A stretch of 64,000 bases of DNA. It comes from Dictyostelium discoideum. Its lineage: Eukaryota. Below are positions 2,591-18,300 of the stretch, in pieces. The notes below the pieces were generated by a model that saw only the letters and a program-made list of their open reading frames with translations, did no database searches and was not told the origin of the DNA. A program made the translations under genes and the position numbers. The stretch is taken from the NCBI GenBank assembly GCA_000004695.1, contig CM000153.2, forward strand, positions 4,480,001 to 4,544,000, in the 5' to 3' direction. Each line of letters starts with the position of its first letter. The stretch's first letter is position 1.

Positions 2591-5500
2591 TTAAATACGA
2601 AAATAAGCATTAATATTATAATTGGGATTATTATTACTAAAATTATGGAGAAATGGTTTGTTACTGCTACTAAATTGATAGATATCACTCCCACCATTTT
2701 TACTTGAATCACTATTATTACTTTCATTACTACTATCACTACTATTATTACTATTACTATTACTATTACTATCTATTACTATTACTATTGCTATTACTAC
2801 TACTATTACTACTATTACTACTATTACTACAAATTTTATTTTGATTATACAAAGGATAATAATTACCCTCCATTTATGATTGTTTTGGATTACTAACAAT
2901 ATAGTGTTATTATTATTAATTGTACATATTATATCTGATGGTGGATAGCATTTAATTTCAAGTTGAGTATTTGAAATGATATCGCATGGTTTATTATTGA
3001 TGGTTACTGATAAATCTATAAATATTACCGAACCAACCATTTAATATTATAGAATACCAAGTTCAGTTTGTTGTAGTTGTTGTGAATTAACTTGATGATT
3101 TGGTGTTAAACACATTGAATCAATCCATTGATTTGTACAATTACACTGACCATTGATTTGATTACAAATACCTTGATTACATCCTAATCCATTATTACAT
3201 TCACATACACCATTTATATAATTACAGAAACTACCATTTTCATCATTACAATCTGATGAACATTTCAATGATCTTAATTCACATTGATAACCTCTCCATT
3301 CATTTGAAAAACAATCACAAACACCCTTCACATAACTATATTCACCACTATTTTTAGCACAATTTGGAATTGGACAATTACTACCATTACAAATTTGATT
3401 CAATTTGAAATTAAAACTATTCGATACATTCATAACTTGAACTAAACAATTAATTTCTTTATTATTATTTACAATACCACCACTATTACTACCTACTTGT
3501 ATCACTGTTACCTTATTATTGATGATTTTATTTGAATTATAAAGATAACATTGAATTTGATTGAAATTACTTGATAATACTAAACAAGGTTCGTTTGAGA
3601 TTAAAACATTGATAACCGTATTATTATATGCAAAGTTTTTACCATTGATAATGAAATAATCTGAATATCTAATAACTGAATCAATTTGTGGTATGAATTC
3701 ATTATAAGCTGTAATTTCAAAAGTTCTTGGACCTTGAGGTAAATATGGAAATGTAATATTGAATCCTTTTGGCATTGGTTGAGTTGAAAAGATATTATTT
3801 TTCAATTGGAATGCTCTATTTGGTGTTATAATAGCAGTTGCAAAATTTTTATCAAACAATGCATGATTGGCGATTTACCACTTATTAAATTATTTCTAAT
3901 GTTACTAACATCAAAATTAACTTCACACCACTATCATCCATTTCTCCAGTAATTTCATTATTATATAAATAATATTCACTATGGGAAATTTAACTTGGTA
4001 ATGGAGTTTTAATACTATTGTTTTGAAATTTTATATATTTAATATTTGTCAATTTTTCATTAATATTTTTAAATTTACCTAAATTTCCATTCTTAAATTC
4101 ACTCTATAAAAAAGATTTAATCATTAATAACTTTTAAATGATTTTAATACTTTTACAATTGGTTGAATATATTTACAGTAAAAACAAATTTTTTGGTAAT
4201 CCAGAAAATGGAAAATCACCATCAATATTGAATAATTTACCTGAACTATTAAATTAATAGAAAAAAAGTTATAAAAGGAGTTAATAAATATCTTGTTTCA
4301 TTTGGGGTAGGATCTCATTCAATACTTTAAATAACCTTTTAATTTAACCAAAACTTACATTGATACCTCATTTTCATAATTATTTGATAAATTAATAAAG
4401 GTAGGAGGCGTATCTATTTGATAAGTAATTGTACTTAATATATTGTTTTTTTTTTAAAAAAAGTTAAAATAATTGTAATAATAATAAAAAATAATGGAGA
4501 AAATAAATAAAAAATATTTACAGACCAGTATTTTTATTTCAGCTGGTATTTCACTTAAAGCAATAGGGAAGGGATATATTTGAGTTTTGTCTGAAGGTGT
4601 TATTGAAAATGCAATTACATTTGAAAATTTTGAAAAAATTGAAAATGAATATATATCAGCTCCACCTAAAAGTGTGAGTTGACTTTTTTTTATTAAAAAA
4701 TGTTTTTTTTTTAAATAATTATTAATATTTATAACATTGGGTAAAAAAAAAAAAAAAAAAAAAAATATATATATAAAAAATAATAAAAAAAAAAAAAATT
4801 TGTAAATACAAACAAAATAGATAAATTAATGTTTTTCACTGATGGTATATTATGAGAATATATGTTATAAATATTGAAAATGGCAGTCGTGGTATCATTC
4901 AAGTCATTTATAAAATTTATTTTATATTTTGGTTTTTGAGTTTGGTTTTTCAACTGAAATTTTTGAACATTTAAAAAACTTGAGAAATATATATTTAGTG
5001 GTCCAGAAAGGTACAATAATAAACTTAATGATTCTACTTGTATAATTTTATTGAACCCAATTTCCACATCAAATAATGATGAATTACCAATAAATAATGA
5101 CATACATGTTAAAGTATTTGGAAATTTTCCTATTAAAAAATTATTTTCAACTTTAAATAAATCTATATTACTGATTTATATTATTTACATATTAGATTTA
5201 TGTATTTATTTATTTATTTATTTATTTATTTATTTATTTAATTTTTTTTTTTTTTCAAAAACACTTACATAGAATTTAATGATGAAAAACATTGAAAATC
5301 AATTGGAGATGAACCATTCTAATACCTTCAACAGCTGTTGAACATTATCACAATAATTTATATAAATGATTTATTAGTTAAATAAAATTAGTTAAAAATA
5401 CTCGCCTAAATTATTGCTCATGTTTTATCAGAATCTTGTAATAGAAAAATAAAATAAAATTAAATAAATAAATATATATAAATAAAAATAAAGTAATAAG

Positions 5501-15366: not shown

Positions 15367-18300
15367 TTAAAATTTAATATCTGTTTCTTCCAACTCTATG
15401 AAAATTTTTTTTTTATCTTTAAATGTGTTTCTAATTTTTACTTTGCATTGATTACTTTTAATAGCTAAAACTAAAAGGATTATTAAAATTACAGATGAAA
15501 TTAAAATTAATATTAAAATTAAAATATTTTTTCTGGAAAATTTTGGATTTTGAGCATCCTCCTTATTCTCACCATTAATACCATCGCTACTACTATTACT
15601 ACTATTACTACTACTACTACTACTACCATTATTAATACACACGCTAATACCATCTAAAGGTGTTGGGTTATAAAATCCACTCCAATGAACATTGTTTTGA
15701 ACAACTGATAATTCCAGATTATTATTATTATATTGGTAACAATAGATGTCTGACGGATAACATTCGACCATATAGTCAGAATCTGCAACAATGTCACATT
15801 CTATTTGATTTACTTTAATAGTTAGATCATTTCGAAAAATTTCACTACCAAACCAACCATTTAATATTAATAGATTACCAAGAGCACCTCGTTTAATATC
15901 TTGTGAGGTAACCATAGTATTAGGTATATTACAATTTGAAGCAGTCCATTGAATAGTACAATTACATTGACCAAATAAATAATCACAAATTCCACCATTA
16001 CTACAACCTAATCCTTCATTACATAGTCTACCACTACAATCATCGAATATTCTATTTTCATTACATTCGCATTTACCATTAATATTATTACAAATACCAC
16101 CACCATCATTATTACTACAATCTGATGAGCATTTCAATGGTTTTTGTTCACATTGATAACCTCTCCATTCATTTGAAAAACAATCACAAACTCCACTCTC
16201 TTTATTATATACACCTCCATTTTTTATATTACACACTGGAACTGGACAATTACTACCATTACAAATTTGATTCAATTTGAAATTAAAACTATTCGATACA
16301 TTCATAACTTGAACTAAACAATTAATTTCTTTATTATTATTTACAATACCACCACTATTACTACTACTTGTATCACTGTTACCATTATTATTATTGATGA
16401 TTTTATTTGAATTATAAAGATAACATTGAATTTGATTGAAATTACTTGATAATACTAAACAAGGTTCGTTTGAGATTAAAACATTGATAACCGTATTATT
16501 ATATGCAAAGTATTTACCATTGATAATGAAATAATCTGAATATCTAATAACTGAATCAATTTGTGGTATGAATTCATTATAAGCTGTAATTTCAAAAGTT
16601 CTTGAACCTTGTGGTAAATATGGAAATGTAATATTGAATCCTTTTGGCATTGGACCAGTTACTCTACTATTCTTTGTAATTTCAAATAATTTATTTCGAA
16701 TTTTTATATATTTTACCCATAAATTTGGATTATCAAATTTGAATGATTTACCAAAACCAAGATCTCTACCATATAGCATCAATGATTTAGTTTGATTATC
16801 ATATGATAGATTTAGTTCAATAGTAGTACAATCTTCTAAATGGTTAATATCTAAATTTGTGAATCTATTACCATTAACAATTGCACTAGTAATTGGATTA
16901 AGGTAATGACAAACTACACATGATGGTGCTTTACCACCAATTAAATTATTACTAATATCGAAAGTTATTGAACACCAACTATCATCCATTTCACCTGTTA
17001 ATTTATTATCATTTAAATATAACTCAAGTAAAACATCCATTGATTTAATAAAAGATGATGTTGGTAATTTACTGGTTAAACCATTAAATGATAAATCTAT
17101 TATATTTGTTTTCTCTTTGAAAATATTAAAATTGATTACACTTATATTTCCATTTTTCAATTGACTTTTGAAAAAAAAAAAATTAAAATAAAAAAAAAAT
17201 TAGTATTTTTATACTATTATTATATTTATCTTGTGTTTTAATTATTATTATTATTATTATTATTATTATTATTATTATTATTATTATTATTATTTTAAAA
17301 TAGTTACAATGTATTTAAATTTGGTGGTAACACTGAAAATGGAAAGTTACCATTAATATTGAATAAATTACCTGCATTTGTAATAAATCTGTTTTTTTTT
17401 TTTTTAAAAAAAAGGTAAATAAATTTAGGTTTAAAATATATATATATATATTAAAAACATACATTCCCTCCACCAAATCATCATCAGAGTAATTTGACAA
17501 GTCTATATAATCAATTGGTTTTTTAATTTGATACCCAATCGAACTATTATTTAATTAGTAAATAATAATAATTATTAGTAATAAATAATTAATAATTAAT
17601 AATACTTACAAACCAGTATTTTTATTAATAGAAATTGGTATTTTAGTTAAGGCTATTGGAAATGGGTAGATATGTGATGGATCTGCTGATTTCAAGTTTA
17701 AACTTCTAATTTTTGAATAAGTTGAAAAATTAGAAAACGAATTTTGGTCTGTACCTGGCAACAGAGTAAATTCTCTAAATTATATATAAATTTTTTATAT
17801 TAATATTATTTTGGAAATATATTATTTAAAAATTATTATAAATAAATAAAATTTAAATACATACAATAAACCACCTTTTAAGTTATCCATGGATGGTATA
17901 GAGTGTGTGTATATTGGAAAAATTCGAAAATATTGGTTATCTGTTATTATGGAATGATCGTTTATATCATTTATATAGTTGATTTTATATTTTGGTGCTA
18001 ATGTTTGAGTTGAGAGAGAAAAATCTATTACATTCAAAAGATTTGATAAATAAATATTTAGAGGTCCTGAAAGGAATAATTTCACTGAAAGATTATTGAA
18101 TGGTATTGTTTTATTTACACCACTATCAATATTAAATAATGTTGAATCACCATTAAGTAATGATACCATTTTCAATGATTCAGGAAATTTCCCTAATAAA
18201 AATTGATTTGTAACTCTGAATTTATCTATATTTCTATAATTTGATAAACATATGTTATTATTATTATTATTATTATTATTATTATTATTATTATTATAAT

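Follow-up and report, generated by a model that had tools for sequence, protein, structure and literature searches.

A 64-kb window of chromosome 4 of Dictyostelium discoideum AX4 (contig CM000153.2 of assembly GCA_000004695.1, positions 4,480,001 to 4,544,000 of the forward strand) carries five ComC-like genes in tandem, all on the minus strand, which we name U1 to U5 by their position. The last exons of U2 to U5 are mosaics in which a block of about 400 nucleotides, near-identical in all four copies, is set between sequences of much lower identity. This pattern is very probably the product of interlocus gene conversion, with concerted evolution limited to part of the last exon. Far from being peculiar to the AX4 genome, the mosaic is of old date and has persisted across species. 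An earlier note on this DNA had assigned letters to the units (D for U2, C for U3, A for U4 and B for U5) and had favoured ongoing conversion or unequal exchange over simple divergence, a preference borne out by the homogenisation of synonymous sites and by the clustering of copies by genome in five other genomes.

In the product of the large last exon, the C-terminal leucine-rich repeats (LRRs) are followed by two beta-sandwiches, an EGF region rich in Cys and a third sandwich; a low-complexity stalk then leads to a hydrophobic segment at the C-terminus. The shared block lies on the minus strand at 3371-3778 in U2, 8524-8916 in U3, 12274-12663 in U4 and 16243-16653 in U5, and codes for the final two strands of beta-sandwich 1 followed by the entire IPT/TIG sandwich as far as CNGSNCP. 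Every pair among U2-U5 is 97.4-99.1% identical over the 349 aligned nucleotides that remain once a low-complexity loop is left out, U2 being 98.3-98.9% identical to U3, U4 and U5. The peptides quoted for the block in the earlier note are indeed present on the minus strand: MPKGFNITFPYLPQG is found at 3731-3775, 8869-8913, 12616-12660 and 16606-16650, and NQICNGSNCP at 3371-3400, 8524-8553 and 16243-16272, the U4 copy (open reading frame (ORF) 11401-13170) reading NQICNGINCP instead. In the last-exon sequence 5' of the block nucleotide identity is 58-70%. Sliding-window identity over the whole units, the check that had been proposed, is strongly non-uniform with sharp edges, contrary to uniform divergence. 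Most pairs lie at 55-75% upstream and all pairs at 93-100% in the block; downstream, U2 and U3 match each other at 97-100%, as do U4 and U5, and identity between these two types is 70-80%.

The 5' edge of the block, at CCAATGCCAAAAGG, is sharp to about 10 nucleotides and falls at 16653 in U5, 12663 in U4, 8916 in U3 and 3778 in U2; the 3' edge is at AATTGTCCA, 16243 in U5. In a low-confidence AlphaFold2 model of the U5 last-exon ectodomain, used for rough strand and domain positions only (predicted local distance difference test 58, predicted template-modelling score 0.32), the 5' edge apparently sits at no domain boundary: the beginning of the block falls in the first beta-sandwich, as does a patch of 34 codons that precedes it. 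The earlier note had counted five units in the array, and the block is common to U2-U5. U1 keeps only the first ~28 block codons (367-282), with ~91% identity and a synonymous divergence (dS) of 0.27-0.46 to the other copies; being truncated within the block and only this similar, U1 is therefore not homogenised. An Asn/Ser low-complexity loop within the block is indel-rich, copy-specific and likewise not homogenised (U5 16330-16392). This loop is a hypervariable microsatellite interrupting the homogenised tract (16330-16392, 12361-12402, 8611-8655 and 3458-3517) and differs in every copy and genome; in U2 of D. citrinum it runs to more than 120 Asn codons (locus L002, ~7405-7790).

The near-identity of the block extends to silent sites. 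Between the two EGF types of copies (U2/U3 and U4/U5), dS by the Nei-Gojobori method (NG86) is 0.00-0.11 in the block, compared with 0.40-0.44 for last-exon sequence upstream, 0.35-0.47 for the EGF part and ~1.0 for the tail. Codons for the same amino acid differ in 0.9-4.7% of cases in the block and in 16-22% in the flanks, a contrast far outside chance expectation (Fisher p 1.6e-5 to 1e-4). Between species, block dS is 0.27-0.40, like that of the flanks, and it reaches 0.60-0.87 against unconverted paralogs, the controls here being U1 of D. citrinum and of D. dimigraforme and the DDB_G0286217-type genes V1 and V2 (L006) of D. cf. discoideum. As block dS is normal both between species and against unconverted paralogs, silent sites in the block are free of constraint.

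The orthologous locus was taken from five further assemblies, reached via the U1 orthologs: a second 'D. discoideum' (S2, L001), D. citrinum (L002), D. dimigraforme (L003) and two of 'D. cf. discoideum' (cf1 and cf2, L004 and L005). All five keep the order (U4/5)-U3-U2-U1 with MCU, kinase and uricase genes after it, except that U2 is almost wholly deleted in cf2; a full-length U2 unit is present in AX4, S2, cf1, D. citrinum and D. dimigraforme. The upstream exons give an unambiguous one-to-one orthology. Within the LRR part, U3 orthologs are 83-97% identical and the U2/U3 paralogs 68-72% in every genome. For the EGF part, U2 and U3 of the same genome are 99.1, 98.0, 96.8, 92.8 and 95.8% identical, compared with 85-97.5% for orthologs, and block identity is 91.7% within D. 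citrinum versus 86-91% between genomes, and 98.6% within cf1 versus 92-96%.

Three adjacent segments of a single exon thus give three topologies in neighbour-joining trees. The LRR part resolves into ortholog clades with 99-100% bootstrap. For the block, ortholog and type clades receive 0% and the copies group by genome (cf1 100%, D. citrinum 76%, AX4 50%, S2 45%). In the tree of the EGF part, the U4/5 type stands apart (100%) and the U2 and U3 of each genome form a pair (74-100%). Fixed private sites agree with this: 22 are genome-private and none ortholog-private in the block, compared with 5 and 77, respectively, in the LRR part. Since the LRR part goes by ortholog, and the block and the U2/U3 EGF part go by genome, the array has undergone concerted evolution. 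D. discoideum, D. citrinum and D. dimigraforme separated after the paralogs had arisen, and since then the block has been homogenised again and again in U2-U5, as has the EGF part in U2 and U3.

The edges are conserved as well. The high-identity tract begins at the same position in every genome and pair; the tract common with U4/U5 ends after ~410 nucleotides and the U2/U3 tract ~800-950 nucleotides downstream, near a poly-Asn repeat. A second, unlinked ComC-like array on another contig of cf2 (V1/V2, DDB_G0286217-type, L006 6001-12677) displays the same mosaic with the same 5' edge: V1 and V2 are near-identical in the block and EGF region (dS 0.03-0.05) and diverge in the patch that immediately precedes the block (dS ~0.49, non-synonymous divergence (dN) 0.41).

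Downstream of the block the EGF regions fall into the two types described in the earlier note, whose exact peptides could be located. The A/B type occupies 15870-16242 in U5 and ~11900-12273 in U4, with EQKPLKC... at 16018-16149 and 12049-12180, and the C/D type 8180-8523 in U3 and 3050-3370 in U2, with ELRSLKC... at 8329-8433 and 3176-3280; all are on the minus strand. The two types are 75.7-76.7% identical at the nucleotide level. Between U2 and U3 the high identity continues from the block through the EGF region into the start of the third beta-sandwich and ends at the poly-Asn repeat, making a tract of ~840 nucleotides on the minus strand (2937-3778 in U2, 8090-8916 in U3). Outside the low-complexity loop this tract is 97.6-100% identical, compared with 52% just upstream and 63-74% downstream, and over 3469-2964 of U2 just three substitutions and three small indels separate it from U3.

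U2 is a pseudogene, as the earlier note had recognised in calling copy D a pseudogene nearly identical to C over more than 800 bp; the matching length runs from 3778 to ~2937. Measured against the intact S2 ortholog (L001), it carries frameshifting deletions at ~4119, 3931, 3902 (40 nucleotides), 3050, 3021 and 2868, and a 129-nucleotide deletion at 3866. These lesions flank the tract on both sides, and the segment 3866-3051 is still open. In a 3SEQ-like triplet test the AX4 U2 sequence is U5-like at 3704-3470 and then U3-like (p = 0.0006); two affinities along one copy point to at least two different donors to the pseudogene. The open segment fits conversion from functional neighbours after, or during, decay. 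The AX4 pseudogene very probably still takes part in conversion, its block and EGF segment being kept open and 99% identical to U3 as the flanks decay. The annotated short ORF DDB_G0286433 is a remnant of the pseudogene, very probably held open by conversion. The fates of U2 differ among close relatives: the AX4 pseudogene leaves a 242-amino-acid remnant (DDB_G0286433), S2 has an intact gene of 932 amino acids (L001 4514-7864), and in cf2 U2 is a ~200-bp fragment (L005 9976-10171) fused into the U1 gene model P0006.

U4 and U5 have a different history. They form a head-to-tail duplication of a whole 3.9-kb unit (11398-15297 and 15364-19250) that ends at the stop codon, and the LRR part of their last exons shows no difference in 137 codons. 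The statement in the earlier note that the LRR exons are divergent everywhere is therefore false for A and B. This is a young tandem duplication, separate from the conversion, and it may be specific to the AX4 lineage, one U4/5-type copy being present in the stretch fetched from cf2. A partial copy of the U4/U5 EGF-to-stalk region is found on chromosome 5 (DDB_G0287453, P0010) and differs from U4 by 10 mismatches and one 16-amino-acid gap over ~205 amino acids.

The sole differing part of the LRR-side last exon between U4 and U5 is the fast-evolving patch of 34 codons (GKSFKFDNPNLWVKYIKIRNKLFEITKNSRVTGP; minus strand, U5 16654-16755, U4 12664-12765), which lies directly 5' of the block and adjoins the conserved 5' edge of every tract. 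It has 12 differences between the two copies, 10.5 non-synonymous and 1.5 synonymous, and identity dips here in every pair and genome. Omega (dN/dS) in the patch takes values between 0.2 and 3.8 depending on the pair, all from small counts, and exceeds 1 in several ortholog pairs; in the LRR part it is 0.5-0.8. The patch may be a hotspot of diversifying selection.

From these patterns we infer a mechanism of recombination, and with it the direction of transfer and the cause of the 5' edge. Recurrent non-reciprocal homologous recombination would copy a portion of the last exon from one gene into its neighbours. A tract of ~400 nucleotides, coding for the final part of beta-sandwich 1 and for the TIG sandwich, would be exchanged among all of U2-U5, and a longer one of ~840 nucleotides, with the same 5' edge and running through the EGF region to the poly-Asn repeat, only between U2 and U3. 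The LRR part would never take part and would keep its gene-specific sequence. Two causes may be proposed for the 5' edge. The divergence of the patch could remove the homology needed for heteroduplex extension, in which case the mismatch barrier would be self-reinforcing; or conversions that overwrite the patch and LRR part could be selected against. What single genomes show of the exchange is an unchanged order U3-U2-U1, LRR parts that stay gene-specific and two-edged tracts, all of which favours conversion.

These same features bear on unequal crossing-over, by which chimeric genes could have been made, above all the 3' half of U2 and U3. Such exchange does happen in arrays of this type; U4/U5 is a whole-unit tandem duplication, copy content varies between genomes (U2 is almost deleted in cf2, and the stretch fetched from there has a single U4/5-type copy), and the U2/U3 tract, which reaches a repeat, could owe its origin to a crossover. 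The block common with U4/U5 has two edges, however, and one crossover cannot make both. The U2/U3 tract ends inside the gene, before the transmembrane segment and the tail, and crossing-over would need repeated events that restored the same layout, with the U2/U3 EGF parts closer within genomes than orthologs are. The hallmark of a crossover, a single junction with gain or loss of a unit, is absent from the U3 versus U4/U5 block and is found only in the U4/U5 duplication. Two-edged tracts, unchanged gene order and gene-specific LRR parts thus argue for gene conversion over unequal crossing-over, which as the source of the mosaic is improbable. Unequal exchange or tandem duplication does explain U4/U5, and probably also the differences in copy content between genomes. 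Of the two processes named in the earlier note, conversion therefore accounts for the mosaic, and a single unequal crossover does not fit it, save for the A/B pair.

Three further explanations dispense with exchange between the genes. Purifying selection alone could be held to have kept the TIG block alike: no other segment of the protein is conserved as well, distant paralogs included, and the dN of the block is low. Selection of this kind is very hard to reconcile with silent sites that are homogenised within genomes and diverge normally between species and against unconverted paralogs, with 22 genome-private and no ortholog-private fixed sites in the block, or with an edge sharp to ~10 nucleotides inside one exon and apparently inside one beta-sandwich. 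Nor is it any more credible that all copies are very recent duplicates whose flanks diverged explosively under positive selection. Several pairs with omega above 1 in the patch of 34 codons, and a fairly high LRR omega, would fit this, but dS, which positive selection does not increase, is also high in the flanks (0.33-1.0); moreover, the LRR parts have one-to-one orthologs in the same order in five other genomes, so the paralogs predate speciation. Least probable of all is an assembly artefact, with repeats collapsed or cross-polished. Repeated arrays in AT-rich genomes are hard to assemble, although nothing specific points to such an error here, and the same mosaic and edges recur in six independent assemblies, each with its own copy-specific differences and block loops.

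Several observations weigh against gene conversion or soften the case for it. In the distant DDB_G0286217-type paralogs the block is the best-conserved segment (80% nucleotide identity, compared with ~74% for the EGF part and undetectable similarity in the LRR part). Protein constraint is thus adding part of the contrast between block and flanks at non-synonymous sites; it cannot yield identity at silent sites. GC-biased conversion was looked for, and no excess of G+C at third codon positions was found (block 0.13-0.17, LRR part 0.11-0.18, EGF 0.08-0.12). The Sawyer/GENECONV-style run test on polymorphic sites, which the earlier note had suggested, flags U2-U3 and U4-U5 only; it is blind to the block, which is monomorphic in all copies, and was replaced by the silent-site tests, the triplet test and the cross-genome trees. 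In cf2 the U3-U5 block identity of 95.1% is no higher than the ~96% to AX4. Bootstrap values for genome clusters in the block are moderate for the close D. discoideum-group genomes (AX4 and S2, above) because few sites vary among very close genomes, and the U4/U5 orthologs were sampled in one other genome and a D. citrinum fragment only.

The exon map of the array was made by tblastn with orthologous proteins as queries. On the minus strand, U1 (269-2353) is a truncated, LRR-only member that comes last in the array; its ORF, which ends at 269, is an exact match to P0009, DDB_G0286431 of AX4 chromosome 4. The U2 pseudogene, broken by stops and frameshifts, spans ~2520-5320, its LRR exons decayed and its block and EGF segment clean, and its surviving ORF (3047-3775) is an exact match to the AX4 chromosome 4 protein DDB_G0286433 (P0002). 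U3 (7639-~10940) is apparently intact, with a last exon open from ~9417 to the stop at 7639. The two arms of the tandem duplication hold the genes U4 (11401-~14600) and U5 (15367-~18580), with last-exon ORFs at 11401-13170 and 15367-17160, respectively. A homolog search returned 10 proteins (P0001-P0010), none of which is U3, U4 or U5 itself.

Membership of the ComC-type family was judged by the Pfam families PF24141, PF24143, PF01833 and PF25024. IPT/TIG (PF01833) matches the second sandwich with 23.2-24.5 bits in U2, U3 and U5 (24.5 in U5; cutoff 20.9). Beta-sand_ComC_2nd reaches 18 bits on the same sandwich (cutoff 27), the U1 ORF matches LRR_ComC (PF24141) with E = 0.004 and 17.3 bits (cutoff 27), and EGF_TEN, a teneurin-type EGF, scores 28.4 bits (cutoff 65), all three under their cutoffs. 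Precomputed matches to PF24141 are listed for the orthologs P0003-P0008, P0004-P0008 being U1 orthologs. The Cys spacing of the EGF region and a C-terminal hydrophobic stretch, a candidate transmembrane segment, are visible in the sequence. With TIG above cutoff and LRR_ComC on the orthologs, U1-U5 are called ComC-like genes, and their sequences predict surface proteins with LRR, beta-sandwich/TIG, EGF and transmembrane parts. They share their domain types with the family of ComC (EGF-like domain-containing protein ComC), namely LRR_ComC in the U1 orthologs, TIG, EGF and a C-terminal hydrophobic segment, but are paralogs and not comC itself, and the ComC-specific Pfam matches on the window ORFs fall under the curated cutoffs.

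Between U3 and U2 lies an inverted repeat (6599-6827 and 7085-7313) with arms of 229 nucleotides that are 94% complementary and a spacer of 257 nucleotides. The palindromic element of ~715 bp that it forms is conserved at the corresponding position in S2 (L001 3420-4098, 77%) and in part also in cf1 and cf2; it could be a hairpin or an element resembling a miniature inverted-repeat transposable element. The window as a whole has ~20% G+C, and no tRNA genes were found within its 64 kb. Unrelated minus-strand genes in the neighbourhood code for a PI3/PI4-kinase domain protein (26469-29321), a protein kinase (35490-36770) and a fragment of a class-II glutamine amidotransferase (62261-63163).

Our literature searches found nothing on the U1-U5 genes or on conversion in the ComC-like family. 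The array offers a clean, well-bounded case of concerted evolution confined to part of one exon, across six Dictyostelium genomes. In practice, trees and orthology assignments for ComC-like genes that are drawn from the TIG/EGF part will mislead, since gene history is tracked only by the LRR part. The process itself is textbook gene conversion, of which the ComC-like array is a new example with modest general significance.

The division of the exon into an exchanged and an unexchanged part recalls receptor families in which homogenisation spares the recognition part, such as plant nucleotide-binding leucine-rich repeat (NLR)/LRR clusters and the genes of the major histocompatibility complex (MHC) class I and II, with their constant and peptide-binding exons. 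As in these, a 'constant' structural module is homogenised in the array, and the LRR or recognition module is gene-specific and fast-evolving. Unlike in the NLR and MHC families, the evidence for diversifying selection in the array is weak, with omega above 1 only in the 34-codon patch, in some pairs and on small counts, and we know of no recognition function for the U1-U5 genes. The conserved edge beside the fast-evolving patch is a testable pointer to a gene-specific, possibly ligand-recognising, function of the LRR head and patch. A rather unlikely extension of this idea is that the array is a cluster of recognition receptors with a constant stem and a variable head, in which conversion is allowed or favoured in the TIG/EGF stem and diversifying selection excludes it from the LRR head and patch. 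Such selection, if real, would explain why the edge is fixed across species and in the second array, and the ComC-like family would then be a candidate system for self/non-self or for prey or bacterium recognition in social amoebae.

Among small tandem families, concerted evolution by interlocus gene conversion is familiar from the primate gamma-globin genes, the red/green opsins and RHD/RHCE. The array resembles these in its tracts of a few hundred base pairs with discrete edges, in the homogenisation of silent sites, and in paralogs that are closer to one another than to their orthologs next to segments that remain orthologous. It differs from them in that the tract edge falls within a single exon of a gene for a multidomain surface protein and has kept its nucleotide position in several species, and in that two nested classes of tract share one 5' edge and a pseudogene takes part in the exchange.

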